64,000 bases of DNA from an uncultured Collinsella sp. (GTDB lineage: Bacteria; Actinomycetota; Coriobacteriia; Coriobacteriales; Coriobacteriaceae): contig UQAU01000002.1 of the NCBI GenBank assembly GCA_900539035.1, positions 20,771 through 84,770 of the forward strand, in the 5' to 3' direction. Below the pieces are notes generated by a model. That model was not told the DNA's origin. It saw only the letters and a program-made list of their open reading frames with translations, and made no database searches. Shown in pieces: positions 41,425 through 58,817 of the stretch; position 1 is the first letter of the stretch, and each line of letters opens with the position of its first letter. The translations under genes and the position numbers were made by a program.

Positions 41425-41501
41425 TGCGGGGTGGAGCAGTCTGGTAGCTCGCCGGGCTCATAACCCGGAGGTCGTAGGTTCAAATCCTGCCCCCGCGACC
41501 A
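41425..41501 (+). tRNA. tRNA-Met (anticodon CAT) with initiator-like features (three G:C pairs closing the anticodon stem, non-Watson-Crick 1:72)
   Basis: Cloverleaf can be drawn by hand: acceptor TGCGGGG/CCCCGCG, D-arm GGAGCAGTCTGGTAGCTC, anticodon arm CCGGGCTCATAACCCGG, T-arm GGTTCAAATCC, 3' CCA. Confidence 0.85.
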
Positions 41502-41694
41502 AGACCTTTAGCAGCTCAGAGGCATTGTTCCTCTGGGCTGTTTTCTTTTATCTTGACAATGCAGCGAGGACTCCTGAGCGGAATATGAGCAGATTGCAAC
41601 GACCGCCAAGGCAAAACAGATGCCAATAAAACTAAAACCAGCTAAATAGAAGTGAAGAACCCGTAGAATCTTCCTCAGTGGAAAAGGCTATCAA

Positions 41695-44484
41695 GTGAGG
41701 GTCCGTATGCCAGGAAAGAAAGCCGATGCAGAAGCTTTTGCAAGCAGGTGGGCGAACAAGGGAAATGAGAACCAGGACACGCAACGGTTCTGGATCGACT
41801 TCTATCAGAATGTCCTGGGCGTGGAGGATGCGGTCTCGAGACTTGAGTTCGAGAAGCCCGTCTCCACCGATGCGAGCACGCACGATGGGTATATCGACGT
41901 CTTCATACCATCGGCCAAAACCCTTGTCGAGCAAAAGTCGCTGGGAATCGATCTCGCCAAGGAGGAGACGTGCCAGGGCCGCAAGGTGACGCCCGCGAAG
42001 CAGGGCAACGCCTACGCTCAGGGCATGCCCCTCTCCCAACAGCCTCGCTACATCATCGCTTGCAATTTTGCCGAGTTTTGGGTCTTCGACCGCGAGCGGG
42101 ACTCGCTATGCCGGGAGCCGCTTTTCAAGTTGCCGCTCGCCGAGCTCCCCAAGAACCTCGCTGCCATTCAGTTCCTCAAGGGCGGGGCGGAGGCCCCGGC
42201 CACGATCTCCCGCGCCGTTTCCGTCGAGGCCGGCAAGATCATGTCGAAACTCCATGACCAAGTCGCCGAGGCGTTCGATGACCCCGACACGCCCGAGAAT
42301 CACCATGCGCTCTCCGTGCTCATGACGCGCCTCATGTTCCTCATGTTCTGCGAGGACTCGGGACTCGTTGCCCCCAACGCCTTCCGCGACTACGTCTCGC
42401 ACTTCCAGGCGGGTGATCTCAGGCGAGGCCTCAAGGACCTTTTCGTTTGGCTCGACACCAAGGACGAGGACCGCGACAAGTACGCCGAGCCCTGGCTGAA
42501 GAAACTGCCCTACATGAACGGTGGCCTCTTCCGGGAGAAGACGGAGATTCCGCCCCTGTCCGAGAACTTCCGCCATACGCTCATCGTCGAGGGGTGCCAG
42601 GAGTTTGATTGGTCGGGCGTGAGCCCCACGGTCTTCGGCTCCATCTTCGAGGGCGCGCTGTCCCACGACCACCGCCGCGCAAACGGCCAGCACTTCACGA
42701 GCCCCGAAAACATCCACAAGGTCATAGACCCGCTCTTCCTCGACGGCCTCAAGGCTGAGTTCGAGGAGGCCCGTGTCAAGCCCGTCGCGGGCGGTGCGAG
42801 GACCCGTGCGCTCAAGGACCTGCATGAAAAGATCGGTAGCGTCTCTATCCTCGACCCGGCTGCCGGGTCAGGCAACTTCCTGACGGAGAGCTACCTGTGC
42901 CTGAGGCAGCTGGAGAACCGCATCCTCTTCGAGCTCCAGGGTGAGCAGACGTCATTCAGCTTTGAGGATTCCGGCGATCGCGACGTGCTGGTCAACCTAA
43001 AGAACTTCCATGGTATTGAGCTGGAGGACTTCGCTTGCTGCGTTGCCCGCACGGCTCTCTGGATCGCCGAGAAGCAGGCGGACGCTGACACCGCAAAAGT
43101 GACGCAGCGCGTCTACCAGGAACTTCCGCTCACGGACTATGAGGGCATCGTTAACGCGAATGCCCTTCGTATCGACTGGAATGACGTCGTATCAGCGGAT
43201 GAGGTCGATTATGTGCTCGGAAATCCTCCTTTTATAGGCAGTTCGCGCCTTGAAGACGCTCAAAAGGAAGATAGGAAGGCGATTTTTGGCAAATCCGCTG
43301 GTTTGCTCGACTATGTTGCATGCTGGCATAAGAAAGCGGCTGAATATATGGATGGGCATCGTGTTCGATGTGCATTCGTTTCAACTAACTCTATCTGTCA
43401 GGGACAGCAGGTTGAGCCCCTGTGGAAGCCCCTGTTCGACAATGGCGTTCATATCGATTTCGCCTATAAAACGTTCGTTTGGGATTCCCAAGCATCTGAT
43501 AAAGCGAATGTCCATGTTGTCATTGCCGGATTTTCTAAAAGTCCCGATATACAACCTCTACTGTTTAGCTCAACGGGTGCAACAAAAGCGGACAACATCA
43601 ACGGCTACCTCTCGAATGCTCCGGACGTTTTTGTCGAAAAGCGAAGGCAGCCCCTCTGCTCTGTTCCGAAGATGTCGCGAGGTGGCGGCGCTGGTGATTG
43701 GGGATTTTTAACCCTCGATGAGGCTGAGGCACATCGTTTACTGACTTCATATCCTGCTCTCGAACAGTACATTAGGCCATTTTCAATGGGATCTGAGTTT
43801 ATCAAGGGCATTAACAGGTATTGCTTGTGGTTTGCTGGACTATCGGGAGCCGAGCTATCCAAACTTCCCAAAGAAATAAGGGATCGGTTCGATGAAATCC
43901 GCAAACTAAGGTTGGCTTCTCCGCGTTCTGGCACGCAAAAGAGAGCCTGTGCCCCGTGGGAGTTCGATGAGGTTAAAGCGCCTGCCGATGGCGCATTCCT
44001 GGCCGTTCCACAGGTGTCTTCCGGACGGAGGAAATACATTCCGGTCGGATTCATAACCAACGGCACTATTCCTGGAAACAAGCTCTTTTTTGTCGAAGAG
44101 GCGGATTTGTATGATTTTGGAATCATCTCAAGTCAGTTTCACAACGCATGGATGAGGCAGGTTGCTGGACGCTTAAAGAGCGATTATCAATACTCGAACA
44201 CTATCGTCTATAACAATTTTGTCTGGCCTTCTCCATCTGCGAGTCAGAAGGATGAGATACGCCAGTGTGCTAGGGATGTGCTTGAGGCGAGAAACGCTCA
44301 ACGCGGGGCAACTCTTGCCGACATGTATAGCCCCGATAAAGCCCTCTTCTTCTCCGATCTCATGAAGGCTCATGCACGGCTCGACGCTGCTGTCGAATCT
44401 GCCTATGGCGTTGATTTTGGCGGAGATGAAGAGAGGGTTGTTTCGCATCTATTCAAGCTTTATGCCGAGAAGGTCGGTGAGTAG
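41695..44484 (+). CDS. MmeI-family type IIL (IIG) restriction-modification enzyme, single polypeptide with N-terminal nuclease, gamma-class N6-adenine MTase and TRD
   Basis: N-terminus FWIDFYQNVLGV...GYIDVFIPSAKTLVEQKSLGIDL matches the MmeI N-terminus from memory. Central NANALRIDWNDV...VLGNPPFIGS...RCAFVSTNSICQGQQVEPLWKPLF and C-terminal YQYSNTIVYNNFVWP are near-identical in pattern to MmeI. 929 aa, against 919 for MmeI. Confidence 0.85.
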   Translation: MRVRMPGKKADAEAFASRWANKGNENQDTQRFWIDFYQNVLGVEDAVSRLEFEKPVSTDASTHDGYIDVFIPSAKTLVEQKSLGIDLAKEETCQGRKVTPAKQGNAYAQGMPLSQQPRYIIACNFAEFWVFDRERDSLCREPLFKLPLAELPKNLAAIQFLKGGAEAPATISRAVSVEAGKIMSKLHDQVAEAFDDPDTPENHHALSVLMTRLMFLMFCEDSGLVAPNAFRDYVSHFQAGDLRRGLKDLFVWLDTKDEDRDKYAEPWLKKLPYMNGGLFREKTEIPPLSENFRHTLIVEGCQEFDWSGVSPTVFGSIFEGALSHDHRRANGQHFTSPENIHKVIDPLFLDGLKAEFEEARVKPVAGGARTRALKDLHEKIGSVSILDPAAGSGNFLTESYLCLRQLENRILFELQGEQTSFSFEDSGDRDVLVNLKNFHGIELEDFACCVARTALWIAEKQADADTAKVTQRVYQELPLTDYEGIVNANALRIDWNDVVSADEVDYVLGNPPFIGSSRLEDAQKEDRKAIFGKSAGLLDYVACWHKKAAEYMDGHRVRCAFVSTNSICQGQQVEPLWKPLFDNGVHIDFAYKTFVWDSQASDKANVHVVIAGFSKSPDIQPLLFSSTGATKADNINGYLSNAPDVFVEKRRQPLCSVPKMSRGGGAGDWGFLTLDEAEAHRLLTSYPALEQYIRPFSMGSEFIKGINRYCLWFAGLSGAELSKLPKEIRDRFDEIRKLRLASPRSGTQKRACAPWEFDEVKAPADGAFLAVPQVSSGRRKYIPVGFITNGTIPGNKLFFVEEADLYDFGIISSQFHNAWMRQVAGRLKSDYQYSNTIVYNNFVWPSPSASQKDEIRQCARDVLEARNAQRGATLADMYSPDKALFFSDLMKAHARLDAAVESAYGVDFGGDEERVVSHLFKLYAEKVGE

Positions 44485-44485
44485 C

Positions 44486-45400
44486 GTGAAGGGGAACGTC
44501 ATAAAGCCGAAGGGGGAGACGATACCATCCGAACCCGATTCCGTGAAGGGGAGCATTGGAGATCTAAGGGCCGAGGCCGATCGACAGGAGGAGGAAGCCC
44601 AAAGATATGCCATCGCCTTCCTCAAGAAGGTTATGAGGCTGAAAGGCGTGGCAATCGAGCGCGACCATTTCCTCCGCTCAGAGTTTCGTAAGCGGGGCGT
44701 TGCGGACGAGCAGGTAGAGCTCGCGATTTCAACGAGCCCAGCCGCCGCCGGGATGGATTCTGACCTTGTCGACTCCATCGCGAGGGACGTCATTGATTTC
44801 GAGACGAAGAAATCGACCGTCCTTTCGTTCTCCGCGGGATTGCCCGGCGGGCTCGCGATGCTCGGAACGATCCCGGCGGACGTGACGCAGTACTATGTCC
44901 ACGCCTTTCGAATCATGCAGAAGCTGGCGTATCTCTACGGCTGGCAGTCATTTATCGACGATTGCGACGAGATGGACGATGAGACCTTGGCGGCCTTCGC
45001 CCTTCTCCTGGCCGTGATGGCCGGCGTGAGCGGTGCCAACTCCGCCTTGACGGCGTTTTCCAAAACGGTTCAGGCCAATGTGGCCAAGAAGGTCGCCAAC
45101 AAGGCGCTTATGCAGACAAGTTACTACCCGATTATCAAAAAGGTCCTTGCCGGGATCGGCGTCAAGATCACCAAAAGCAGTTTCGGCGACGTGGTGAGCA
45201 AAGTCGTTCCGGTCGTCGGCGGGTTCATCTCGGGAGGCCTCACGTTCGTCAGCCTCAAGGGCGGGTCGAGGAGACTTGCAGGGGAGCTCAGGTCATTGCC
45301 GCAGGCGACAGGTCCCTTGACCGCAGCGGCGGTTGATTCTTTTACTGATTTTGCCGAAATGAAGGGGATGACGAGCGATGACGATGCCCAAATGGCATGA
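44486..45400 (+). CDS. EcsC-family protein (hypothetical), translationally coupled to the RM gene
   Basis: GTG start 2 nt after the RM stop. Motif SAGLPGGLAMLGTIPADVTQYYVHAFRIMQKLAYLYGW resembles the EcsC core (GGMSGTGG...PA....V.....GSAYGYD) as recalled from B. subtilis EcsC. Confidence 0.45.
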   Translation: MKGNVIKPKGETIPSEPDSVKGSIGDLRAEADRQEEEAQRYAIAFLKKVMRLKGVAIERDHFLRSEFRKRGVADEQVELAISTSPAAAGMDSDLVDSIARDVIDFETKKSTVLSFSAGLPGGLAMLGTIPADVTQYYVHAFRIMQKLAYLYGWQSFIDDCDEMDDETLAAFALLLAVMAGVSGANSALTAFSKTVQANVAKKVANKALMQTSYYPIIKKVLAGIGVKITKSSFGDVVSKVVPVVGGFISGGLTFVSLKGGSRRLAGELRSLPQATGPLTAAAVDSFTDFAEMKGMTSDDDAQMA

Positions 45401-46316
45401 GACCATGCGGCCCATCCTTGAAGCGCTGGCGCATGTCGATGGATATCTGGCCGGCACCGACCTCCAGGATGCCGTGGCGATCGAATTCGACATGACCGAT
45501 GACGAACGGGCCGAGCGTCTTAAGAGCGGCCAGTCGAGACTCTACAACCGCGTGTACTGGGGTATCACCGATTTGGAGAAGGCTAAGCTTCTGGAATACG
45601 GCGAGAAGAAGGGAACCTACCGTATCACCGATGCCGGCAGGACGTACCTCTCTGATTATCCCGGACCCATTACAGCCAAGGGTCTCTATGAGAACTGCAC
45701 GGCATTCAAGAAGTGGAAAGACGGCTATCAGGCCGCAAGCAAGGCCAAAAACGCTTCAGAGCCCGAGGGCGTTTCGACGCTGGAGGACCAGGAGTCCCCT
45801 CAGGAGGCGATGGAGTCTGCCTACGGCGAGATTCGCGACGCGCTCGCCGACGACCTCATTTCGATCATCATGGGAAAAGATCCGTATTTCTTCGAGCACC
45901 TGGTCGGAAAGCTGCTCGTGGCGATGGGTTACGGCGAGAGCCTGGACTCCCGTGCCGACGTCACCAAAAAGAGTGGTGACGAGGGGATAGACGGCGTCGT
46001 CCGTGAGGACCGACTCGGATTCGGAACCATCTGCTACCAGGCTAAGCGGTGGGATCCGCAAAGGACGGTCGGACGGCCGGAGGTTCAGGCATTCGTCGGG
46101 GCGCTTTCCGGAAAGGGCGTATCGAAGGGCCTTTTCATCACCACGGCTCGCTTCTCCAAGGATGCCCGCAAATATGCTGAGGGCCTCCTGGGGCAGACGG
46201 TCGTGCTCGTCGACGGCCCCGCGCTCGCCGGCCTCATGATCGACTACGGCGTCGGCGTGAGCACGAGACAGGTCTACGAGATCAAGGCCGTTGACACCGA
46301 TTTCTTCGACGAATAG
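45378..46316 (+). CDS. mrr: Mrr-family type IV (modification-dependent) restriction endonuclease
   Basis: Mrr_N winged helix (MPKWHETMRPILEAL...) plus Mrr_cat PD-(D/E)xK domain (...DEGIDGVV...ICYQAKRW...). Confidence 0.8.
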   Translation: MTMPKWHETMRPILEALAHVDGYLAGTDLQDAVAIEFDMTDDERAERLKSGQSRLYNRVYWGITDLEKAKLLEYGEKKGTYRITDAGRTYLSDYPGPITAKGLYENCTAFKKWKDGYQAASKAKNASEPEGVSTLEDQESPQEAMESAYGEIRDALADDLISIIMGKDPYFFEHLVGKLLVAMGYGESLDSRADVTKKSGDEGIDGVVREDRLGFGTICYQAKRWDPQRTVGRPEVQAFVGALSGKGVSKGLFITTARFSKDARKYAEGLLGQTVVLVDGPALAGLMIDYGVGVSTRQVYEIKAVDTDFFDE

Positions 46317-46336
46317 CGCGTGTCTGCAACGCGCCG

Positions 46337-47086
46337 CTACCGCGCGCCCTTCCGCCCGTTGCATTTCGAGCAGAGCACCTGCAGGTTGGATGGAACGGTC
46401 TTGCCGCCCTTCGCGACCGGCACGATATGGTCGACGTGCAGGCCCACGCCGTCCGGCATGTATTTCCCGCATATCTGGCAGGTGTAGTTGTCCCGGCGGG
46501 CGATCTGCTCGCGCAGCTGCTTCGTCATCAGCCTTCGCTGGTTCCTGGCGTGATAGTCCCTGAGCGTCGCCTCGTCGTTGATGGCGGCGAGGCGGATGCG
46601 GCGCTCGACGATCCACTCCCAGTTCACGTCAAGCTCGGAATCATCCATCGACACCTTGTAGGACGTCTTCACGTAGTTGGCCTGCTTGTACCTCGTCTGG
46701 TCGCGGCAGGTGATGAACCTAAAGGCCCTGTCATCGTCGACCGCCTCGGCGTACTGACGCTCGCGCCGGCTGCGGAGCCGGCAGGTTTTCAGATACTCTT
46801 CTTGCTCGTGCTTCCAGTTCTGGATGTATGCCCTATGGGCGACGATGGCGTCCCAACCGGCCGGGTCCATCAGGTGACGGTCGATGTAGTCCTCGATCCT
46901 CACGTTGCGCCTGCCAGACACATCGAAGCGGGCCACGTAGTAGGGATACCTAAAGGGGCTCGCCAGAATCCTGCGAACCAGGACCGCGATTGCACATACC
47001 AGGGCTATGGCCAGCACGCCGAGAACGAAATGGGGCGTCAGGTCGACTATATAGTGGTACCCGTCTATCTCATAGAGCTGAGTCAT
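46337..47086 (-). CDS. Membrane-anchored HNH endonuclease
   Basis: N-terminal TM (FVLGVLAIALVCAIAVLV) and C-terminal HNH motif CQICGKYMPDGVGLHVDHIVPVAKGGKTVPSNLQVLCSKCN. Start at MTQLYEID is preceded by GGAAGGAAG. Confidence 0.7.
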   Translation of the reverse strand: MTQLYEIDGYHYIVDLTPHFVLGVLAIALVCAIAVLVRRILASPFRYPYYVARFDVSGRRNVRIEDYIDRHLMDPAGWDAIVAHRAYIQNWKHEQEEYLKTCRLRSRRERQYAEAVDDDRAFRFITCRDQTRYKQANYVKTSYKVSMDDSELDVNWEWIVERRIRLAAINDEATLRDYHARNQRRLMTKQLREQIARRDNYTCQICGKYMPDGVGLHVDHIVPVAKGGKTVPSNLQVLCSKCNGRKGAR

Positions 47087-47246
47087 GGCATTCTTCCTTC
47101 CCCAAGGATGGCAAAATGATACCAAGACGCGGGTCTTCCGGATCGCGGGCGCTTTCCACGCGGTACACCCATGCCCCTCCGTCCGGACACCGCACACCGA
47201 ACCCCCACACCACGTTCGCTTTACAATCAAGAACATTCGTTCGACA

Positions 47247-47606
47247 ATGAAGCCCGTGAGATACAAACGGATGTTCGGGGGTACGCGCATGATCATGAAA
47301 AAGCACTCGCTTGCGGGAACCTGCGGCATACCCACCGATGCACAGCGCATCTACATCCCCGTGGACGCCAACGGCGCGGACGACCCCGACCACGGCCCGT
47401 CCGATCCCGTCACCATCCACTGGCCGGACGGCCGCAGTTGGAAGGTTGAGAGCATCTACGCCCGCCAGGAGTTCGGCCGCGCCATCTTCGGTAACCTCTG
47501 TGTGCGTTACGACGTCTGCATCGCGAGGCAGCGCAAAACGGTCTGGTGGGAGCACGGCGACTGGTTCGTCGAGCGCGGTGGCGGCATGGCGGTGACGCCC
47601 GAGTGA
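47247..47606 (+). CDS. Hypothetical small protein, paralog A (WPDGR-motif family)
   Basis: Shares ...ADG....PV.I.WPDGR.W.V..I... with the next ORF. Start uncertain (47247, 47289 or 47295). The ORF-track start overlaps the HNH gene on the opposite strand. Confidence 0.35.
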   Translation: MKPVRYKRMFGGTRMIMKKHSLAGTCGIPTDAQRIYIPVDANGADDPDHGPSDPVTIHWPDGRSWKVESIYARQEFGRAIFGNLCVRYDVCIARQRKTVWWEHGDWFVERGGGMAVTPE

Positions 47607-48004
47607 TGGGCCACACAAAGGACTTCGGCGGCGGCATCACCGTTCGCGCCAACGGCGACAAGCCCGGCAGACGCGTCCATAAGCAGTACGTAGACGTCTA
47701 CGCCCGCACTAACGCCGACGGAACGACGGTGCCTGTCCGCGTCTGCTGGCCGGACGGCCGCGGCTTCACGATCGACCAAATCATTCGAATAGACCCCTTC
47801 GGCGCGGTCATCCACGACGCGCAGACGGCGGTCTACACGGTGCGCTTCGGCGGCTGGACCACTCAGCTCATGCTGGAGCACTACCACAGGGAGGACCCCA
47901 TTCACGGGGCAGATGACCGCCTGCGATGGTGGGTCTGGGCGTTCGAGAACACCCGCTCGAAGAACGACGTTTCCGCACCGCCTGCCGACACGCGCGTCCG
48001 GTGA
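47606..48004 (+). CDS. Hypothetical small protein, paralog B (WPDGR-motif family)
   Basis: The ATG shares a base with the paralog A stop (TGATG). PVRVCWPDGRGFTIDQII... aligns to paralog A. Confidence 0.4.
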   Translation: MGHTKDFGGGITVRANGDKPGRRVHKQYVDVYARTNADGTTVPVRVCWPDGRGFTIDQIIRIDPFGAVIHDAQTAVYTVRFGGWTTQLMLEHYHREDPIHGADDRLRWWVWAFENTRSKNDVSAPPADTRVR

Positions 48005-48047
48005 ACGCGGGTTGGGTCGTCATGCGGAACGCAGAGGGTGACGTCGG

Positions 48048-48278
48048 CTAGAGCCAAGCTCCGGTCCACTCGCTCCGGTTCCTCGTCGCCGCGAGGAGCG
48101 CACCGCATGCCGCGAGCAGTTCGTAGTCCGCGATCCTGATCCCGACCGACATGGCCTCGGCGAGGACTTCAATCCCTCTGCCATAATCCTCGATCTCGGA
48201 GAATACCCCGATACCGTCCATGAGCCGCAGGGCGGCTTCGCTCGGCCCGTCCCCCGTCGTGACGTGACGTTCTTCCAT
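48048..48278 (-). CDS. Hypothetical small protein (76 aa), weak
   Basis: ORF only. No motif. Confidence 0.2.
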   Translation of the reverse strand: MEERHVTTGDGPSEAALRLMDGIGVFSEIEDYGRGIEVLAEAMSVGIRIADYELLAACGALLAATRNRSEWTGAWL

Positions 48279-48592
48279 GCCGAAACAATCCTCTCTATGC
48301 TAGAAAGGCGATGATAGCAGGTGCTGTCCGGGCCAGCGTAAACCGCGTTTTACGTTTTACGGCATCCGCTGACGGCGGCCACGGCTCCGTGGCCGGGTGA
48401 TGCCTCCGCTGCGCCCTGTAAAGGCCGCTCCATGAGGCCCCGCACAAACCTCCGCTCCGCTCCGGTTGGTGGAGGCCGTCATGGAGGACCTTGACAGGCC
48501 TTCGCTCCGGCATGGCTTTGCAGGGAGCAAAGCCGACGACGACGCGCGGCGTCGCCATTCGGCTTTGCCCGCAGGGGCGAGATGTTAGGGCC

Positions 48593-48919
48593 ATGCGCCC
48601 GGAGACGGAGGAAGACATGCAGCAGCTGATGACCGAGGAGATGGCCGGGAGGCTCCCGAGGCTCTACGAGCAGGACGGTGCCGGCGACCCCGTCGCGTAC
48701 GTCCACTATTTCTCGTGCTTGAGCGGGTGGGACTGGTGGCTCACCGAGTACGACCCCGCCACGGGCGAGGCATTCGGGCTCGTGCGCGGGTTCGAGACGG
48801 AGTGGGGCTATTTCAGCGTGCGGGAGATGGAGCGCCTCAACCGTGAGAAGGGGTTCGAGGCCATCGAGCGCGACGAGCATTTCGAGCCCGCGCCGGCGAG
48901 TAGGTTCGAGGGGAGATAG
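48593..48919 (+). CDS. DUF2958-like small protein, common on conjugative and mobilizable elements
   Basis: Motif YVHYFSCLSGWDWWLTEYDPATGEAFGLVRGFETEWGYFSVREMERL recalled as the DUF2958 signature (W.WY.TE.D......FG.V.G.E.E.GYFSL.EL). Confidence 0.45.
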   Translation: MRPETEEDMQQLMTEEMAGRLPRLYEQDGAGDPVAYVHYFSCLSGWDWWLTEYDPATGEAFGLVRGFETEWGYFSVREMERLNREKGFEAIERDEHFEPAPASRFEGR

Positions 48920-48923
48920 CGCG

Positions 48924-51204: not shown

Positions 51205-51211
51205 CCACTTC

Positions 51212-53170
51212 CTATTCGTCCCAGGCCGCCCACTCGTCCATGAACGCCGCGTTGTCCTCGTCGGCCTTGGTGGGATCGTTCGGGGCGGTCTCTTCTTCAC
51301 CGGATGCGTCGCCATCGGCGTCGAACTCGGGGCACCACGGGGTGGGGGCTTCATATGCGTCGCCTTCTGCGGCGGCTCTCGCGCGGGCGTAGTACGCGGC
51401 CCGTTTCTCGCGCTCGGCCTCCTCGTCCCCGAGCCCGAAGAACGGGCCGGCGGGCGTCCTGTTGGCGTAGTCGAGCGGGAATTCGAAGACGCCCTCACGT
51501 CCGGGCTTCGAGTTCTCCCCGCCCTTGATCGCGATGAGGCCGTCGCGGATGGGGATGCGGTTCTGCCACTCCCATTCGTTTATCAGGGGAACGCCCGCCT
51601 CGTTGTAGCTCGTGCCAGATGAGGAGCGCCCTGCGCCTTTCTGGCTAGACGTTCCCATCGAGCGCACGGTCCGCTTTCCCGCGAGTGCCGTGAAGAACTT
51701 GAAGTCCTCTGGCTCGGAGAGAGACAGAGCGACCTTGATGCCGATGGAGCCGATCAGCTTGTCGCGACCGGCCCCGCCGTCGCCTGGGTCATTGTAGGCA
51801 TTCAATTCTTTGAGATTTTGAACGAAGATTTGCTCGCGTATTCCCATCGAACGTCCGAGCGTCGCGATGGCCGGCAGACACGCGACCTTGACGTTGAGGT
51901 TGCCGATCTCGTCGAGCACGAGCGCTGTCTCGTGTGGCATGCGGCCCCCGTTCCCCTTGCACGCCCGCTGCGCCACCTGCCACCACTGGTTCAGGAAGCA
52001 GGTGTAGACGACCCCGTACGGGTCTCCCTCGTCGAGCATCTCGATGTAGACCGCCGTCTTCCTCTCGATGAGGTCGCGAATGGAGACGCTGCTCTCGGAA
52101 GTCACGGCGCGGAGCGCTCCGTCCGAGAAGATGCTCAGTGCCTCCTTGAGGGTCGAGACGACGTTCTTGCCGGCCGTCGTCGCGCCGCCGTCACCGAGGA
52201 GGTCGGACGCCGGCGAGAACGCCGGGTGCGACGGCCCGAGCTCGCGGATGTAGTCCTTAAGCGGGGCCGAGGGGTCCTTCGGGTCGTCGCCGGCGGTCCC
52301 GCGCTCCACGAGCGCGGCGACGCTCGCGAGGTTCTTCTGCCTGCGGGGGATGTCGGCCGTGCAGACGACGAGGACGCAGGCGGCGAGCATGTTGCGCGCT
52401 GCCTTGGGGAAATACGTGTTCTTCTCCCCGCCGATTGGGATGAGGTCGACGGCAACCTGCCGGGCCGTCCTCACGGCCCCGTCAATGTCGCCCGCCTCGA
52501 CGGCGTCGGCGACAAGTCCGATGGGGTTGTACGAGCTGGCACCGGGATAGCCGGTCAGGTCGAGGACGATGGTCTCGTAGCCGAGCTTCCTCGCCTTGTC
52601 GGCGGTGAGCTCAAGGATCTCGGGCTTTCCGGTGGAGACGACGTTCCAACCGGCTGCCAGGAACATATGCATATCTTCCAGGACTTGGAATTGTGACTTA
52701 CCAGACCCCGTTTTTCCAATGCTGATCGCGTGCGGAACGGACGAGTCGAACCAGTATCCGCCCTTGGTCGCGCCGAGCACGAAACCCGCTCTGGCCGGCG
52801 CGCCGGACCCGTCCCAGAAATCGTTGCGGCGGTTGAGTTCCGCTGTGCCCCGGACGACGTGGGCGTCGCCGTAGATACCTTCGTCGACGTTCCGGTTGCG
52901 TTCGGCGTCCTTTGCGACCGTATAGCCGAGGAGAACGAGAAACAGGAGACAGAACGCTGCGAACATGAACGGAATGTGACCGAGCCATGCCCCGGAAAGC
53001 CAGAAGACCGACCACATGTCGAAACCGATGGCGTCGAGCCAGGCGACCCAATCGATGGGGAGCGACGAAGCGGCGCAAGCGATCACGGGTGCTATCAGGG
53101 GATAACACGCGACGGTAAGGACGGTGGCGAACGAAGCCGAGAGGACAGCGTTGAACTTAAGATTGCGCAC
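51212..53170 (-). CDS. Type IV coupling protein (TraG/VirD4/TraD family)
   Basis: N-terminal TMs, Walker A GKTGSGKS, TraG-like central and C-terminal regions. Confidence 0.85.
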   Translation of the reverse strand: MRNLKFNAVLSASFATVLTVACYPLIAPVIACAASSLPIDWVAWLDAIGFDMWSVFWLSGAWLGHIPFMFAAFCLLFLVLLGYTVAKDAERNRNVDEGIYGDAHVVRGTAELNRRNDFWDGSGAPARAGFVLGATKGGYWFDSSVPHAISIGKTGSGKSQFQVLEDMHMFLAAGWNVVSTGKPEILELTADKARKLGYETIVLDLTGYPGASSYNPIGLVADAVEAGDIDGAVRTARQVAVDLIPIGGEKNTYFPKAARNMLAACVLVVCTADIPRRQKNLASVAALVERGTAGDDPKDPSAPLKDYIRELGPSHPAFSPASDLLGDGGATTAGKNVVSTLKEALSIFSDGALRAVTSESSVSIRDLIERKTAVYIEMLDEGDPYGVVYTCFLNQWWQVAQRACKGNGGRMPHETALVLDEIGNLNVKVACLPAIATLGRSMGIREQIFVQNLKELNAYNDPGDGGAGRDKLIGSIGIKVALSLSEPEDFKFFTALAGKRTVRSMGTSSQKGAGRSSSGTSYNEAGVPLINEWEWQNRIPIRDGLIAIKGGENSKPGREGVFEFPLDYANRTPAGPFFGLGDEEAEREKRAAYYARARAAAEGDAYEAPTPWCPEFDADGDASGEEETAPNDPTKADEDNAAFMDEWAAWDE

Positions 53171-53181
53171 AGGATTTCCTC

Positions 53182-53529
53182 CTAGACGTTCCGGGCATCA
53201 GTCAGGAAGTCCGAGACGGCGTCGGCTGCGTTTCCGACCTTTATGAGTGCGGCATCGAGGAACGGGGCGATCCGACCGGGGTCGTGGGTGATATGGACCT
53301 CGCGCGTCAACTGGTTAAGGTTCGACGCAGCAAGTCTGAAATCTCGGTACAGGAGCTTCAGCGTCTCGGGGTCGGTGGCGATTATGGGTCGGTCGCCGTC
53401 GACGAGCGAGCGTCGGCGAAGGTACTCGCTCATGCTCAGGCCAGCCGCATCGGCACGCCGCGCGATGGCGGCGCGCTCCTGCGAGGTGACTCTGACGTAG
53501 ATGCGGCCCGACCTCTGCGGGCTACTCAT
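53182..53529 (-). CDS. MobC-like relaxosome accessory protein (ribbon-helix-helix)
   Basis: RIYVRVTSQERAAIARRADAAGLSMSEYLRRR. Start moved to MSSPQRSG. Confidence 0.6.
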   Translation of the reverse strand: MSSPQRSGRIYVRVTSQERAAIARRADAAGLSMSEYLRRRSLVDGDRPIIATDPETLKLLYRDFRLAASNLNQLTREVHITHDPGRIAPFLDAALIKVGNAADAVSDFLTDARNV

Positions 53530-53968
53530 TGCGCCCCGCCGCGCCAGTGGGAACGAACACATGGGACACGCCGACTCGGCGGTCGCCTCCCATGCTGTCG
53601 CAGAGCATGAAGGCGAACGCAAACGGGGTGTCGGCAAAGGGTGTGCGGGAACGGGCTTCGAACATGAGGGCCATGAGATCGAGATAGGCGCTTTCAAGGC
53701 GATCGTAGTCCCCGCGCGTCACGGGGATCCCGCGATAGGTGACGATGGGGAGGTCGGGCTCGTCGCAATAGTAGGCGAAGAGTGTGCCGGGGATCTCCTC
53801 CTGGACGATCGCATCGATCGAGGGGATATCGGGGTAGGCCGACGGTGCGAAAGGCCAGGCGAAGAAGGCATGCTTTCGCTTTTCGGCTGCTTCGGGGTTG
53901 AGCTCGATGGTGAACTTCGGGGCGATCTCGAATCGACCGTCCGACAGTTTCAGGGATTTGAATTCCAT
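53522..53968 (-). CDS. Hypothetical protein (148 aa) in the mobilization operon
   Basis: Overlaps the mobC start by 8 nt. Protein-like composition. Confidence 0.4.
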   Translation of the reverse strand: MEFKSLKLSDGRFEIAPKFTIELNPEAAEKRKHAFFAWPFAPSAYPDIPSIDAIVQEEIPGTLFAYYCDEPDLPIVTYRGIPVTRGDYDRLESAYLDLMALMFEARSRTPFADTPFAFAFMLCDSMGGDRRVGVSHVFVPTGAAGRNE

Positions 53969-54023
53969 AACAGGTCCTTTCGATGATGCGGCGGGGCCGG
54001 GTGTGGCTGGCCCCGCCGGTCGA

Positions 54024-55010
54024 TTAGTCGCGGGTGAGAATGTGTGCGAGGGTGATTAGCCGCGCTGTCGCGGTGCGGTGGAACCCGTACTCGACTCCTC
54101 GCTCGGCGAGGAATGCGCGGTGCTCGTTGAGCCGCTTCGCGAGGACGGCGGGCGTTGCATCGGTGAGGCTGGCGTCCTCGATAAGCTGCGTGGCGGTACC
54201 TTCCCAGGCGCCGGGCCGCGCAGCCATGAAGTCGAGGACGGTGAGCACGCATGCCGGAACCTCGCGCTCGCGCAGTTCCTCGCGGCTGGTCTGCTCGATG
54301 AGGTGCCAGCGGCAGTCGGTGAATGCGAGCTTGTATTCCGCTAGGTCGACATCGCGTCCCGTGACGGAGAGAGTCGCCTTTCCGTCGAACATGGCATCTT
54401 TGGCGAGCAGCAAGCACTCGTCTGCCGCCCCGAGTATGCCGTTCGAGCCGCTGATGGTGTTGAACACGTTGGCCTCATCACCCATCTTTCGCGTGTGATG
54501 CACCAACAGGACACAGAGACCGTGTTTGTCGGCGAAAGCCTTGAGCAGGCCAACGTCCTGATAGTCGGACGCGTAGACGCTGTCCCCTCCGCTTGCAACA
54601 CGTACTTTTTGGAGCGTGTCGATGATGATGAGTCTGGTGGATGGGTGGCAGGAGAGATATCGCTCCAACTGGAGGATGAGCCCATTGTTGAGCTTGTCTG
54701 CCATAATCGCGAACTGGAGGTCGTCGTTGGCGACGTCGACGATATGGAACAGGCGGTTCTGGATGCGCGCGTACGTGTCCTCAAGGCACAGATAGAGAAC
54801 GCCGGAACGTTCTGTGGCATGGTCGAGGAACGGCTGGCCGGTGCTAACGCTGACGCTGAGTCCCAGGCTGAACCAACTCTTTCCGACTTTAGGGGTGCCC
54901 GCGAGCACTACGAGGCCGGTGGGGATGAGCTCCTCGACGAGCCAGGTGACGCTTGCGAGTGGGCTGTCGAGCAGGTCCTGCGCGGAACGGACCTCAAGGT
55001 CGCCAGGCAT
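54024..55010 (-). CDS. RepA-like AAA_25 family ATPase (replicative helicase/primase-associated)
   Basis: VVLAGTPKVGKSWFSLGLSVSV (P-loop) ... LIIIDTLQK ... LVHHTRK. Start at MPGDLEV. Confidence 0.65.
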   Translation of the reverse strand: MPGDLEVRSAQDLLDSPLASVTWLVEELIPTGLVVLAGTPKVGKSWFSLGLSVSVSTGQPFLDHATERSGVLYLCLEDTYARIQNRLFHIVDVANDDLQFAIMADKLNNGLILQLERYLSCHPSTRLIIIDTLQKVRVASGGDSVYASDYQDVGLLKAFADKHGLCVLLVHHTRKMGDEANVFNTISGSNGILGAADECLLLAKDAMFDGKATLSVTGRDVDLAEYKLAFTDCRWHLIEQTSREELREREVPACVLTVLDFMAARPGAWEGTATQLIEDASLTDATPAVLAKRLNEHRAFLAERGVEYGFHRTATARLITLAHILTRD

Positions 55011-55011
55011 C

Positions 55012-55221
55012 CTATACCGCCTCCGCGCGGATGACGCGACAGCGGCCGCGATAGTCGGTGACGATCTCGACGCCGAGGGCTGTGCAGAGCGCGTCGATGC
55101 GGTCCGCCTGTTCGATAGCGAATCCGAGAATGTCCTCATCGGTAGGATTGTGTGGGAGACCGTGGGCCTCCAGCGTGCGCGCTACGCGCTCGGCGTGCGC
55201 AAAGTAGGCGGAATAGTCCAT
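55012..55221 (-). CDS. Hypothetical small protein (69 aa)
   Basis: Tightly packed upstream of the AAA_25 gene. Confidence 0.3.
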   Translation of the reverse strand: MDYSAYFAHAERVARTLEAHGLPHNPTDEDILGFAIEQADRIDALCTALGVEIVTDYRGRCRVIRAEAV

Positions 55222-55335
55222 TTGTGCTCCTTGTAGATATGGGCCGCATGGAGCATGTAATATGGACCATGCGGTTTATGTGCCGCGGACGGGTGCGTCT
55301 TCTTGGCGGGAGGGCACCCGTTTTTCTTTTTCAGG

Positions 55336-55533
55336 CTAGCCAACGCCGGCCATCTCCTTTCGGTCGTCGGGCTCTTTTAGCCCGAGCTCGCGGTAGAGCG
55401 CGGAGCGGGCGATGTACCACGTCTTTCCGAGCTTGCGAAACGGAAGCTCACCGGCCTTGGCGAGCTTTTGAGCCTTGGAATAACTCACATTCATAATCTC
55501 GCTTGCTTCAGCGAGAGACAGGAGCTTGTCCAT
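55336..55533 (-). CDS. xis: Excisionase / HTH_17-family DNA-binding protein
   Basis: LSLAEASEIMNVSYSKAQKLAKAGELPFRKLGKTWYIARSAL. Confidence 0.55.
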   Translation of the reverse strand: MDKLLSLAEASEIMNVSYSKAQKLAKAGELPFRKLGKTWYIARSALYRELGLKEPDDRKEMAGVG

Positions 55534-55572
55534 ATATACCTCCTCTCTTATCGTTAATTCCATTGTACACAC

Positions 55573-55684
55573 TTGACAAAGAGAAACAAAGAAAAATAAA
55601 AATCAAATTGAAATGAGATATAGATAAAGGCTAAAGTTGAAACTAACATCGCTATAAAGCTTTATTTAGAAAGTTGATTAAGTA
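55573..55684. promoter_or_regulatory. AT-rich divergent promoter region between xis (minus) and the zf-FCS gene (plus); contains TTGACA
   Basis: About 30% GC over 110 bp. CACTTGACAAAG at 55570-55581. Confidence 0.35.
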
Positions 55685-56917
55685 ATGGCTAGAAAAGTAT
55701 TCATCGCGAGGAACCGAAGCACCGGATTCCACTCCCTGGTCGAGGTGGTTCGTGGGGTTGAGGCGGCGGAGAAGTCGGCTCCAATGGACTTCGAACTTGC
55801 AGAGCGTCTTATGCGCTGGGGCACTCTCGACGAGCTCGTCACGGCCATTTCGGAGTCTGGCCCCCTCATCGACCGCAGCATCTATAAAGAGGAGAATAGG
55901 CGGTTGTCTATCGACGAGGCCATCGAGGTCGTGGAGGAGTCCGTCGGCGGCGAGCGTGGTTTCACGCGTTGTGACGAAGATTTCCTCTATCTCCAGCTGT
56001 GCCTTGAGGGGATGTCTACGACGGGCAGCGCTTCGTCACTCTATCCCTCTCAGGCCTCCATTGCTCGCGATCTCAATCGCCATGGGCTTATTGAGTCCAA
56101 CGGTCTTGACGAGTTGAAGAAATGGCGGGAAGAAGATCCCGACTGCGTCGTTGTGATTGAACCCTTGAGGGACGTCGTCCTATGCCGAAATCTCGGTTCG
56201 GTCCTGCTCAGGTTGATCGCAAACATCATGTCGGGGCATGAGGACGTCCTTGAGAAAAGCGGGTTCAAGCGTTTCGAAAAGAAACGTCGCTGGTGGATTA
56301 CTGGGGAGCTCAAGGACTCCTATTACGTCCTGCCATTCCAGCACAATTCCTCCTTCGATATGACTCTCAACTACTCGACCAAGTGGTTCAAGAACGTCTT
56401 TTCCTATATGGTCATTAATCCGCTTGAGACGCGCATCCTCGATCTTAGGCCGAGAAAGAGTAAGGTTCTTTTCGGATCGGTTCCCAACGCGGTTTTGATA
56501 ACCGCGCAGATAAAGACCGGCGAGGGCGCACCGTTTTTCGATATCGGCTGGAAGCCGGAGGTCGAGAAGACCCAGCTGTATCTCGGTGTCGATGACGGGG
56601 GTGCCCAGAGAGACGAGGCCATTGTCTTTGTGGAGTCCGTTGCCAAAATGCTGGCCGGGCTGACGACGAAGGACGGCGATCAACTTGGGTGGTCTGTAGG
56701 CGGGCCTTCGATCTTCGATGATGTGCCGGTGCCCAGATACCATTTCCACTCGACGGCGGCGGCGATGTTCGGGGCTATCCTCTACCGATACGGCTGTGTC
56801 CCCACGACGTGCAAAAATTGCGGAAACGGCATTTTGGTCAAAACCAGGGGGAAGAGGCGCGAGTTCTGTTCCCCGTCGTGCAGGACGCAGTATTCGAATC
56901 GAAAGGCGGGGCTCTAG
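55685..56917 (+). CDS. Hypothetical protein (410 aa) with a C-terminal zf-FCS/MYM-like zinc ribbon (C-x2-C-x13-FCSPSC)
   Basis: C-terminus CKNCGNGILVKTRGKRREFCSPSCRTQYSNRK. The N-terminal 380 aa have no recognised family. Confidence 0.55.
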   Translation: MARKVFIARNRSTGFHSLVEVVRGVEAAEKSAPMDFELAERLMRWGTLDELVTAISESGPLIDRSIYKEENRRLSIDEAIEVVEESVGGERGFTRCDEDFLYLQLCLEGMSTTGSASSLYPSQASIARDLNRHGLIESNGLDELKKWREEDPDCVVVIEPLRDVVLCRNLGSVLLRLIANIMSGHEDVLEKSGFKRFEKKRRWWITGELKDSYYVLPFQHNSSFDMTLNYSTKWFKNVFSYMVINPLETRILDLRPRKSKVLFGSVPNAVLITAQIKTGEGAPFFDIGWKPEVEKTQLYLGVDDGGAQRDEAIVFVESVAKMLAGLTTKDGDQLGWSVGGPSIFDDVPVPRYHFHSTAAAMFGAILYRYGCVPTTCKNCGNGILVKTRGKRREFCSPSCRTQYSNRKAGL

Positions 56918-57127
56918 ATGAATCCGTTTATCATCGCGGGCGCGGTGTGGCTGGCGGTCGCCATCGCGACCTTGCTGTATCAAGTGGTCCGCAGGAAGCT
57001 CGGGGATCGGGGCTCGATGGTCGAGGCGTCTTGGCGCGACTTGGCTATGTCATCGATCGGTTTCGGGCTTCCGTTCGCGGCGCTCGCGCTTGCCGCCGTC
57101 GGCGTGGCAACAATCTTTCTTCACTAG
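56918..57127 (+). CDS. Small two-TM membrane protein (69 aa)
   Basis: The ATG overlaps the preceding TAG (TAGATG). Two hydrophobic helices. Confidence 0.4.
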   Translation: MNPFIIAGAVWLAVAIATLLYQVVRRKLGDRGSMVEASWRDLAMSSIGFGLPFAALALAAVGVATIFLH

Positions 57128-57139
57128 AGGCGCGGTAGC

Positions 57140-58504
57140 ATGGCGACGGTGCCCCGCAACAAGGGTAGTTACGCCCCTAGGACGGCTGGTAGCTCTTGGC
57201 AGGTAAAGTACCCGCTCGGCTGGAATGAGCGCAAGAAGCGTTACGACGAATATCGTGAAGAGGTCGCTTCGGAGGCCGAGGCCATCGCGCTGATCAAAGC
57301 CATCAACGACTACGTTTATCACGGGGGCCTTCCGCAAGACGTACCCGAGTGGAGACGCAGGGCAAAAGGACATTCCGAGGGTGACGTCCTAACGCTCGAT
57401 GGATTCGCCATGTCCTATATCGCGATGCGGGAGAGGCGGCGAAAAGTCCAGGAGAGGACCATCGAAAGCAACCGCGAGGCCTGGGCAAGACTCCGGCCGT
57501 ACCTCGGCGATTTGCCTCTGAGGCGGGTGACGCCCTTCGTCATCGATGAGGCATATGCCTGTATGGGGAGTCCGGGGGACGATAACCTTGCCGGCAGGGT
57601 CTACTCCGGAACGACGATTGAGAAAAGTCATGCGTTTCTGCGGCAGCTGCTCAAGGACGCCGTCGAGCGGGGTTACATCGACAAGAACCCCTGCGATTCG
57701 ATTGACGCTCCCAAAAGGGATACCAAGGAGAAGGTAGCACTCACTTTATTTCAAGCCCAGGCGCTATTTAACTACATAACGAGTCGCCCCCTGGAGGCAC
57801 ATGCCATTGGCGTGCTGCTTGCGCTGAACTGCGGGCTTAGGCTTTCCGAGATGCTCGCGTTGACCTGGCAAGATTATGAAGGCGGCGTGCTGTCTGTAAC
57901 TAAAGCGCTGAACAAAGAGAAGCAGACGTACAAGTCGACGAAGAACGAAGACAACAGGAGGGTCCCTGTCCCGATGCCGCTCATATCGGTTCTCGATGAG
58001 TGGCAGAAGACCCAAAGGCGCATTTACTCGGACAACCTCGGCCTTCGGTGGAGCGAAGACGCACCCATTGTGAACAGCAGAAACGCAAAGCACATCCTTC
58101 AGCGGTCTTTCACGCGTTGGTTCGATTCGGCAAGGCTCGAGTATCCGATACCCGACGACTTCGAGTTTCATGGGTTCAGGCATACATACGTGACCTTGTT
58201 GAGTCGCGACTGTGGAGTGGACCGGCGAACCGCGAAGAGCATGAGCGGTCACAAGAACGACCAGGCCTTCGATATCTACACTCATACAAACGATGAGTGG
58301 CAGCGAAGGGCGGCTAACGAGCTCGGTGATATCTTGCAGCCTAATGACGGCGCTCGAAAATGCTACAACTGCGCTTACTGGGGCGTATCTCCTCTAGACG
58401 CCGATCGTGGTGCCTGCTGGAACAACCCCGCCGGGCTAATCGAAGCAAAAGCGGGCGACTCGTGTGGCAAGGGCCTGTTCATCGCCAAAACCGCGAAAGC
58501 GTGA
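57140..58504 (+). CDS. int: Tyrosine-type site-specific integrase with a Cys-rich C-terminal tail
   Basis: Catalytic region ...LRLSE...HGFRHTYVTLL...DIYTH (R-H-R-Y) plus a SAM-like N-domain. Tail CYNCAYWGVSPLDADRGACWNNPAGLIEAKAGDSCGKG. Confidence 0.9.
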   Translation: MATVPRNKGSYAPRTAGSSWQVKYPLGWNERKKRYDEYREEVASEAEAIALIKAINDYVYHGGLPQDVPEWRRRAKGHSEGDVLTLDGFAMSYIAMRERRRKVQERTIESNREAWARLRPYLGDLPLRRVTPFVIDEAYACMGSPGDDNLAGRVYSGTTIEKSHAFLRQLLKDAVERGYIDKNPCDSIDAPKRDTKEKVALTLFQAQALFNYITSRPLEAHAIGVLLALNCGLRLSEMLALTWQDYEGGVLSVTKALNKEKQTYKSTKNEDNRRVPVPMPLISVLDEWQKTQRRIYSDNLGLRWSEDAPIVNSRNAKHILQRSFTRWFDSARLEYPIPDDFEFHGFRHTYVTLLSRDCGVDRRTAKSMSGHKNDQAFDIYTHTNDEWQRRAANELGDILQPNDGARKCYNCAYWGVSPLDADRGACWNNPAGLIEAKAGDSCGKGLFIAKTAKA

Positions 58505-58559
58505 CGACAGCGGGCATATCCCATTGAAGCTGTCATTTCCGTCATAGGTGTCATTTGCT

Positions 58560-58740
58560 GACTTGAGTATTGGTTGTTTGTTAATCAGCAGGGGTGATAT
58601 TAAATATGTTCAAATATGGCGGCGGAATCTGATCAGAATATGCTCAGAATGATGACATGAGCAGATAATGAGCAGATAAAAATGCTCAATAATAAGTGCA
58701 TGATACAGCTATTTACCTGCGTAAACGTATAATAGGTTCT
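58560..58740. promoter_or_regulatory. AT-rich attP-derived arm with direct repeats (GAGCAGATAATGAGCAGATAAAA, GCTCAGAAT), candidate integrase arm-type sites
   Basis: Repeats read directly. ATGAGCAGAT also occurs near attL at about 41586. Confidence 0.4.
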
Positions 58741-58762
58741 ATAGAGAAAGAGCCGCCCCGCC

Positions 58763-58810
58763 CTCATAACCCGGAGGTCGTAGGTTCAAATCCTGCCCCC
58801 GCGACCAAGA
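58763..58810 (+). repeat. attR: 48-bp copy of the tRNA-Met 3' end
   Basis: Exact match to 41457-41504. The preceding sequence is not a tRNA 5' half. Confidence 0.85.
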
Positions 58811-58817
58811 ACTTGCA

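Follow-up and report, generated by a model that had tools for sequence, protein, structure and literature searches.

The 64,000-nucleotide stretch of DNA analysed here (the window), part of contig UQAU01000002.1 from an uncultured Collinsella sp., contained a single tRNA gene according to ARAGORN, a tRNA-Met(CAT). From the 3' part of this gene onward, an interval of 17,306 bp was bracketed by a perfect 48-bp direct repeat (41457-41504 and 58763-58810). Defence genes occupied the side of the interval next to the tRNA gene (about 41.7-48.3 kb), followed by a backbone of transfer and integration genes (about 48.6-58.8 kb). Taken as a whole, the interval is very probably an integrative mobilizable element (IME) of Collinsella that resides in the initiator tRNA-Met gene.

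Insertion into the initiator tRNA-Met gene

The attachment (att) sites and the features around them were as follows:

41425-41501, + strand: tRNA-Met(CAT), the integration target (ARAGORN; Rfam RF00005, 63 bits)
41457-41504, + strand: attL core, left 48-bp copy
41510-41552, + strand: replacement tRNA terminator carried by the element, a 13-pair hairpin with a T-rich tail
41585-41594, + strand: arm-type repeat ATGAGCAGAT, P' arm
58657-58677, + strand: two tandem arm-type repeats ATGAGCAGAT, P arm
58763-58810, + strand: attR core, right 48-bp copy, the displaced 3' fragment of the tRNA gene
58817-58851, + strand: native tRNA terminator in host DNA, moved 17.3 kb by the insertion (hairpin at 58817-58841)

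The repeat finder reported a full direct repeat of 57 nt at 95% identity, within which the perfect core of 48 bp corresponded to the 3' part of the initiator-type tRNA-Met, starting at the first base of the anticodon loop and ending 3 nt past the CCA. The tRNA gene is intact because the element provides these 3' 48 bp. Read from the sequence with our own numbering, the tRNA had the three G:C pairs of an initiator anticodon stem (G29-G31:C39-C41, with GGG at 41454-41456 pairing with CCC at 41464-41466 around the loop CTCATAA) and an A11:U24 pair in the D stem (A at 41435, T at 41448), and is thus of the initiator type. Its 1:72 position was a weak U1-G72 wobble, followed in the acceptor stem by G2-C71 and C3-G70. 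In Escherichia coli tRNA-fMet, position 1:72 is a C-A mismatch and the remaining acceptor stem is like that of the Collinsella tRNA.

A preliminary description of this DNA, made from the sequence alone, had already proposed a perfect 48-bp tRNA-Met repeat around 17.3 kb, arm-like repeats at both ends and a tRNA terminator displaced to a position behind attR, and all three were recovered. The spacing of the repeat copies was 17,306 bp, and neither half of the core had a third copy in the 64-kb window when three mismatches were allowed (none was expected by chance). The arm-type repeat ATGAGCAGAT occurred exactly three times in the 64 kb (at 41585, 58657 and 58668), each time within about 105 bp of a repeat copy, and the arm sites were kept in all relatives with the same integrase. 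The hairpin of the native terminator was found 3' of attR here and directly 3' of the tRNA in empty-site contigs (contig L002), whereas the replacement terminator, situated directly behind the rebuilt tRNA gene, was absent from the empty site and kept at the left end of related elements. The insertion was therefore clean and site-specific, and the tRNA gene was restored.

A composition profile had also been suggested as a check, and it set the element apart as foreign only in part. The G+C content at third codon positions (GC3) was 0.66-0.71 in the gene of an MmeI-family enzyme, the gene of a 410-amino-acid (410-aa) protein and the integrase gene (int), as against 0.83-0.87 in flanking genes and in the transfer genes, which thus resembled the flanks.

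Integration, transfer and defence genes

All plausible open reading frames (ORFs) of the element were searched against the Pfam, NCBIfam, PADLOC and PHROG families. The backbone comprised the following features:

48593-48919, + strand: DUF2958 protein (PF11171), inside which a deletion described below ends at 48695
48924-49526, + strand: 200-aa protein (gene calls; GC3 0.95; third-position bias)
49527-50229, no strand assigned: non-coding stretch of 703 nt, GC-rich and hairpin-rich
50052-50114, - strand: conserved covarying hairpin, candidate origin of transfer (oriT), with an invariant base GCAAGAT/ATCTTGC and an invariant 3' flank ACACATCTTGCAT
50230-51204, - strand: relaxase, 324 aa, with a MobA/VirD2-like nuclease domain (PF03432, E 1.5e-11)
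51212-53170, - strand: VirD4/TraG-type coupling protein, 652 aa (PF02534, PF12696, PF10412)
53182-53529, - strand: NikA-like ribbon-helix-helix relaxosome accessory protein, 115 aa (PF21983, E 1e-16)
53522-53968, - strand: 148-aa backbone protein, conserved in the family (gene calls, substitution pattern)
54024-55010, - strand: AAA_25 (RepA/RecA-like) ATPase, 328 aa (PF13481, E 7e-26)
55012-55221, - strand: 69-aa backbone protein (gene calls, substitution pattern)
55336-55533, - strand: HTH_17 protein, 65 aa, excisionase-like or a regulator (PF12728; PHROG excisionase, E 2e-6)
55685-56917, + strand: 410-aa conserved backbone protein with a C-terminal CxxC...CxxxC zinc finger (sub-threshold zf-FCS and TRASH matches)
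56918-57127, + strand: 69-aa protein with two transmembrane helices read from the translation (no family match)
57140-58504, + strand: tyrosine integrase, 454 aa, reading toward attR (PF00589, PF13102)

The integrase was full length, with R...HxxR...Y motifs legible in our own reading of the sequence. Third codon positions accounted for 257 of its 362 variable sites, and 13 Collinsella genome records contained copies at least 89% identical. About 50 aa at its C-terminus (58360-58504) formed an extension with a C-x2-C ... C-W ... C pattern, kept in the 54%-identical integrase of contig L054 (L054:2960-4321) and also present in a 41%-identical variant integrase (L048:2428-3780), where it was read from the copy in L028; to our knowledge, a zinc-binding tail is unusual on a tyrosine integrase. 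The gene for the 410-aa protein was always found upstream of int. This protein had 162 homologues, the best 120 of which were all at least 70% identical; its identity to the counterpart in L048 was 26%, and L054 had a 411-aa ORF at the same place upstream of int. An AlphaFold2 model of it, built with 14 homologues of 70-95% identity as input, was unusable (mean pLDDT 36).

On the minus strand, the transfer operon ran in the order HTH_17 protein, 69-aa protein, AAA_25 ATPase, 148-aa protein, NikA-like protein, VirD4/TraG coupling protein and relaxase. The preliminary labels of integrase, coupling protein and relaxase held; the label MobC did not, as the accessory protein was NikA-like (PF21983), and a weak MobC match was seen only in a relative and was absent from the protein in the window. 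Likewise, an excisionase-like gene was present, but it was the HTH_17 gene at 55336-55533 (minus strand), the first gene of the transfer operon and the only excisionase-like gene of the element, not the ORF beside int. The latter (56918-57127) was rejected as an excisionase, as its translation read as a small two-helix membrane protein with no family matches, including in PHROG. Among the small unassigned ORFs, searches of PHROG, NCBIfam and PADLOC returned matches for the HTH_17 protein only.

The relaxase had 296 homologues in a large protein collection. Among 72,556 plasmids it had a single relative (43% identity), on a plasmid of C. aerofaciens typed as 'non-mobilizable' by MOB-suite. Walker A (GKTGSGKS) and Walker B (VLDEIGN) motifs were legible in the coupling protein, which scored 137 bits against NF045973 (VirD4-like, CD1115 family; cutoff 250) and was at most 27% identical to any plasmid homologue; by sequence it belongs to the VirD4/TraG superfamily, outside the NF045973 equivalog. 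Substitutions in the backbone genes were biased to third positions, which we took as purifying selection. The conjugation proteins of the element were limited to the relaxase, the NikA-like protein and the coupling protein. As first described, no mating-pore genes of a type IV secretion system (T4SS) were found, either in the ORFs of the element by the Pfam, PADLOC, NCBIfam and PHROG scans or elsewhere in the window (46 kb, all of it housekeeping), and no unassigned ORF of the element was long enough for an ATPase of VirB4 size.

Beside the relaxase gene, the 703-nt GC-rich stretch (76% GC in the 1-kb bin 49001-50000) folded better than shuffled sequences on both strands (z -6.6 and -6.1). An Rfam scan of the element returned only the tRNA, with nothing in this stretch. 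A called ORF of 196 aa (49691-50281) was rejected, given a G+C content at second codon positions of 0.73, substitutions spread evenly over the three phases (26/22/23) and indels among relatives. We consider the stretch non-coding because such phase-even substitutions and indels differ from the strong third-position bias of the true genes of the element. The hairpin at 50052-50114 was conserved throughout the family, including in L054 with its 51%-identical relaxase. Its inner stem covaried, with 95.7% of cells paired and eight pairs changed on both sides compared to 3.0 ± 1.0 in shuffles (0 of 500 shuffles), and slid controls were all far lower. Several one-sided changes preserved G-T pairs on the relaxase-sense strand only, consistent with a hairpin that works in single-stranded form. 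An oriT of the NikA/NikB type is an inverted repeat beside a nick region, and the hairpin is a candidate for such an oriT, with a predicted nick in or beside ACACATCTTGCATCG. In sample ERZ1310776 the element was divided over contigs NODE_361 and NODE_470, with the break at about 49373-49500, in or beside the GC-rich stretch, which probably causes drop-outs of assembly or coverage.

The cargo was almost entirely nuclease and restriction genes in the earlier account, and PADLOC agreed, reporting Type IIG restriction-modification (R-M), PDC-S30, Type IV Mrr and HNH genes:

41707-44484, + strand: MmeI-family Type IIG/IIL R-M enzyme, 925 aa (five MmeI Pfam domains; PADLOC REase_MTase_IIG, 1022 bits)
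44462-45400, + strand: PDC-S30 candidate phage-defence protein, 312 aa (PADLOC PDLC04989, 292 bits)
45378-46316, + strand: Mrr-type Type IV methyl-directed restriction enzyme (Mrr_N and Mrr_cat; PADLOC mREase_IV, 227 bits)
46337-47086, - strand: HNH endonuclease, 249 aa, N-terminus read as a hydrophobic helix (PF01844, PF14279)
47247-48004, + strand: two paralogous small proteins, 119 and 132 aa, with a common WPDGR motif (internal repeat, gene calls)
48048-48278, - strand: 76-aa ORF (gene calls, substitution pattern)

In the MmeI-type enzyme, five Pfam domains followed one another above cutoff (E 1e-13 to 2.5e-84), giving a single chain of N-terminal nuclease, helical spacer, methyltransferase, target-recognition and C-terminal domains. 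Part of its gene (43223-44383) could not be aligned with the copy in contig L008, nor 43535-44305 with copies of the L028 type, while the remainder was 90-96% identical. The first of these segments covers the target-recognition domain together with the end of the methyltransferase domain before it and a portion of the C-terminal domain after it; the pattern looks like swapping of target-recognition domains, which would change the recognition sequence. The PDC-S30 protein had no Pfam or NCBIfam match. The HNH endonuclease had weak REase_II and PtuB matches in PADLOC, and contigs encoding exactly this protein showed only contexts of the type seen in the window. The paralogous pair had a coding-type substitution pattern and no family matches in Pfam, PADLOC or PHROG. 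Judged by these families, the MmeI-type, PDC-S30, Mrr and HNH proteins would restrict phages and rival mobile DNA.

Forms of the locus and relatives of the element

An empty site, with tRNA-Met directly followed by the terminator flank, had been proposed as a check on the insertion. Such sites were sought among metagenome contigs encoding exactly the oxidoreductase downstream of the element (59336-61366). These contigs included occupied ones (L001) and two empty ones (L002 and L004), with tRNA-Met running directly into the flank that starts at 58811 and carries the native terminator. The empty contigs lacked exactly the 17,306-bp interval, and their flanks were 98.7-100% identical to the window. 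L002 matched the window at 100% identity along 5.5 kb of upstream and 5.2 kb of downstream flank, and at 98.7% in the 395 bp beside the tRNA; the 17.3 kb were therefore gained or lost recently compared to the divergence of the flanks. An inactive integrase, or a region syntenic in all relatives, would have spoken against a mobile element; the integrase was full length with a third-position bias, and the region was not syntenic in all relatives.

We also scanned metagenome contigs for exact matches to the 48-bp core, which gave more than 120 matches, and classified 120 core-containing stretches. Among the matches listed, 87 junctions with the true tRNA gene on their left side could be classified. 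About 50 of them (~57%) were empty, eight had the left end of this element type, six had a sugar island, and the remainder represented at least eight other end types. These many end types, together with the empty sites, show that the initiator tRNA-Met gene is an integration hotspot in Collinsella. Four contigs (L003, L041, L042 and L061) stopped inside the 48-bp repeat.

Occupied loci took several forms. In a remnant form (L006, L010, L012 and L013), 41505-48695 was kept and 48696-58809 was gone, so that the defence genes remained while the mobility half and attR were lost. The junction lay inside the DUF2958 gene and was identical in all four contigs, so a single deletion event produced them; L005 is probably the same form, with a junction too diverged for alignment. 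The edge of the deletion (48695 | 58810; L006:13246-13250, and in L010, L012 and L013) lay no more than about 2 nt from the outer boundary of the 48-bp repeat. At its other end, the DUF2958 stretch loosely resembled a tRNA 3' end (CGACCCC.TCG.CCA, compared to CCCCCGCGACCA); the deletion could have arisen by microhomology or from an aberrant recombinase event. The copy in L007 was split by an IS21-family insertion. In L010 and L012, a 5.4-kb sugar island (L010:720-6080), encoding a phosphotransferase system (PTS) EIIBC component, a family-4 glycosidase and an RpiR-type regulator, was situated in tandem between the tRNA gene and the element remnant, and carried its own copy of the repeat and its own tRNA-terminator hairpin. 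Islands beyond attR were found in L019, L027 and L162, each with its own tRNA repeat copy.

A variant type (L028 and L048) had the same MmeI-S30-Mrr block at the tRNA gene, an inverted backbone and an end in the same tRNA repeat. It encoded a different integrase (41% identity) and a VapE-like protein instead of the AAA_25 ATPase. Strains of C. aerofaciens RTP21484 are carriers of this variant. The defence block and the mobility block are thus separable modules in the population. The 17.3 kb are nonetheless one excision unit today, because the window had no internal att site and the empty site lacked both blocks.

A more distant relative, L054, shared the nine-gene backbone of the window (relaxase 51% and integrase 54% identical) in the order integrase, 411-aa protein, HTH_17 protein, 72-aa protein, AAA_25 ATPase, NikA-like protein, 151-aa protein, coupling protein and relaxase. 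A tRNA-Met gene was close by, separated from the relaxase by a Type I R-M system. No mating-pore genes were found beside the relaxase in the relatives inspected. Contig L057 (L057:1-5500) held a compact relative with an accessory protein, a 149-aa protein, a coupling protein and a relaxase (68% identity); a convergent gene for a 418-aa integrase was only 140 bp from the relaxase gene, near two tRNA-Ser genes, so the same mobilization module also pairs with a different integrase and target. One contig labelled 'Treponemataceae' (L023, CAVCKO010000034.1) carried the element at 92-95% identity, including a 95% match to the integrase. It was rejected as a case of transfer across phyla and is probably a mis-binned contig, as the alignment continued past attR into the Collinsella flank to 61425.

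The rest of the window was housekeeping, with carAB, purFMN, prs, a GlmU-like gene and transporters. The host intergenic region 58897-59195, which separates attR from the oxidoreductase gene, contained palindromic units of about 55 nt (TCTCGATCTGTAACA ... TGTTACAGATCGAGA), three of them good and one degenerate. The motif GATCTGTAACA occurred seven times there, with 0.35 expected, and nowhere else in the window. This array is host DNA, because it is also present in the empty site; one 66-bp unit (59074-59138) was absent in L016, L018, L020, L021 and L013. Its units may be operators, or the array may be a small repeat element. Strains also differed at a second small site about 1 kb upstream of the tRNA (~40310-40455), between a BPL-like gene and a pantothenate kinase gene, where L007, L008 and L013 had an additional AAA_14/DUF4143 ATPase gene and L005 a serpin gene. 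Further away, a gene at 16748-18214 with Schlafen/AlbA_2 and HATPase_c_4 domains had a GC3 of 0.54 compared to 0.75-0.89 in its neighbours; it lies in a patch of low GC at 16-21 kb and probably stems from horizontal transfer.

Proposed mode of transfer, rival explanations and wider meaning

The gene set of the interval, an integrase, a relaxase, an accessory protein and a coupling protein with no pore, fits the published definition of an IME (PMC5704250). We suggest that the integrase, probably helped by the HTH_17 protein as directionality factor, would bind the ATGAGCAGAT arms together with a core in the region of the anticodon stem-loop and would recombine the two 48-bp repeats to release a circle. 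The predicted attP junction would be ...GAGCCGCCCCGCC, the 48-bp core and CCTTTAGCAGCTCAG, and the predicted restored attB would be the tRNA followed by ACTTGCAGCTCGTCGG. The NikA-like protein and the relaxase would then nick oriT, for which the hairpin at 50052-50114 is the best candidate. The element's own VirD4-type coupling protein would pass the relaxase-bound single strand to the T4SS pore of a co-resident conjugative element. The AAA_25 ATPase may aid replication or maintenance of the circle. In a recipient, the integrase would target the tRNA-fMet site, expected to be empty in most strains. Excision and helper-driven transfer are thus what we infer from the genes and att sites.

Several observations weigh against an IME of this kind. 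A junction of the excised circle, which the preliminary description had proposed to look for, did not appear: a 72-nt attP pattern (attR arm, core and left end) had no matches in metagenome contigs, no attP-like junction was present among the 120 core-containing stretches, and contigs with exactly this integrase showed the integrated context only. The missing attP is a weak negative, because circles of this kind seldom end up in assemblies. No helper T4SS was identified, and none was present in the window. The relaxase is divergent, scoring below every NCBIfam model and giving no PDB sequence match at E <= 1, and its sole plasmid relative sits on the plasmid typed as 'non-mobilizable'. In L054, no tRNA repeat was found within 3 kb beyond the integrase. 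The hairpin could be a factor-independent terminator of the relaxase operon. Finally, the present unit may be a fusion rather than the original design, since the defence and mobility blocks occur apart or in opposite relative orientation in other strains.

This last point leads to the possibility that the interval is a composite, in which a roughly 10-kb IME joined an older, decayed defence islet at the tRNA (MmeI, PDC-S30, Mrr and perhaps HNH), with later loss of the internal att site. Such an origin, under which the present unit would still be an IME, is unlikely. Accretion of an IME next to an immobile remnant is documented (PMC5704250), remnant loci keep 41505-48695 without 48696-58809, L028 and L048 join the MmeI-S30-Mrr block to an inverted backbone with a 41%-identical integrase, and tandem islands with their own repeats occupy the site in L010, L012, L019, L027 and L162. 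Yet a strict tandem model calls for an internal third att site, and no att-like third sequence was present in the window even at three mismatches. Where the site is empty, in a near-identical background, both blocks are missing together, and the remnant junction truncates the DUF2958 gene, which points to deletion from a full element and not to an ancestral islet. L054 also has the same layout, with cargo between tRNA and relaxase, although its cargo is unrelated.

We regard it as very unlikely that the interval is an immobile relic of an integrative conjugative element (ICE) that lost its T4SS genes. A relaxase and a coupling protein are present together, as in conjugative elements, decay at the locus is evident from the remnant form and the IS21 insertion, and the attP junction was not seen in the contig searches. 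However, the compact backbone without a T4SS is kept at 51-54% identity in L054 and also in the L048 type, no relative inspected had pore genes beside the relaxase, all backbone genes are under purifying selection, and the element is present or absent within near-identical flanks. Because the pore-less backbone and the defence slot on the tRNA side recur in diverged relatives, a true IME family accounts for the locus better than a freshly decayed conjugative element. Still more improbable is mobilization by a helper phage, with the interval as a phage satellite or cryptic prophage-like island; the satellite layout of integrase, AlpA-like HTH protein and primase- or helicase-like ATPase resembles the integrase, HTH_17 and AAA_25 (or VapE-like) module here, and Ventura et al. 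(2005) reportedly found tRNA-Met in use by prophage-like elements of bifidobacteria. Against a satellite, the relaxase, NikA-like protein and VirD4 coupling protein are present and conserved, and PHROG matched only the HTH_17 protein and the zinc-finger tail of the 410-aa protein, with no capsid, terminase or packaging gene. The chance is slightest of all for an actinomycete ICE (AICE), which would transfer double-stranded DNA by a single FtsK-like translocase. The host does belong to the Actinomycetota, and integration at a tRNA 3' end with an adjoining replication-like ATPase would suit such an element, but no ORF encoded an FtsK/SpoIIIE-domain protein, and with a relaxase and VirD4 the element has genes for single-strand transfer.

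As an IME, the element has close parallels. It resembles IMEs of Firmicutes, in particular streptococci, in its tyrosine integrase, relaxase, accessory factor and coupling protein without a pore, and streptococcal IMEs also integrate at tRNA 3' ends with a direct repeat, accrete in tandem, decay to immobile remnants and exchange integration and mobilization modules (PMC5357655, PMC5704250). Unlike these, it has a host in the Coriobacteriia, a divergent relaxase and coupling protein, an integrase at the end distal to the tRNA and a four-gene defence block as cargo, and its mobilization is predicted. With NBU1 and related mobilizable elements of Bacteroides it shares a small size, an integrase and a relaxase, the need for a helper pore and insertion at a tRNA 3' end (tRNA-Leu in NBU1) (PMC5704250). 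Host phylum, relaxase lineage and cargo differ from those of NBU1, which is not known to have a coupling protein of its own. AICEs of the pSAM2 type are found in the same host phylum; unlike them, the element has a relaxase and VirD4 and no FtsK-like translocase. AICEs integrate at tRNA 3' ends, restore the tRNA and move double-stranded DNA via the FtsK-like TraB. Going by the descriptions in an E. coli survey (PMC10121019) and in accounts of pipolins and similar elements (PMC11551731, PMC11389934), the element is also like hitcher elements that carry defence genes, with a tRNA hotspot and a mostly anti-phage load that varies between relatives; organism and backbone differ.

IMEs with their own relaxase and coupling protein are well known, and defence genes on mobilizable islands at tRNA hotspots are also documented. 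What is new is the lineage, with its Collinsella host, divergent relaxase and coupling protein, conserved 410-aa integrase partner and Cys-rich integrase tail. We found no description of this element in the literature on Collinsella integrative mobilizable elements. The finding leaves current concepts unchanged and adds one well-documented case, in a gut genus that is abundant and varies greatly between strains, and for whose mobile elements few descriptions exist. Such elements are probably undercounted when mobility is surveyed in gut Actinomycetota, given that the sole plasmid relative of the relaxase sits on a plasmid typed as 'non-mobilizable'.

A single site here presents a series of empty, full, IS-interrupted and tandemly accreted forms and an immobile defence remnant, a series that shows anti-phage genes arriving on a hitch-hiker and then becoming fixed as chromosomal 'defence islands'. 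We tentatively propose, at a confidence somewhat short of even, that the element is the type example of an undescribed IME family, so far seen almost only in Collinsella, that acts as a shuttle loading interchangeable defence cassettes beside the initiator tRNA; the near absence of plasmid relatives of the relaxase, the 410-aa zinc-finger protein, the Cys-rich integrase tail and the covarying hairpin would be its marks. If so, loss of the mobility half in this family would leave fixed defence islets at a hotspot shared with at least eight other island types.

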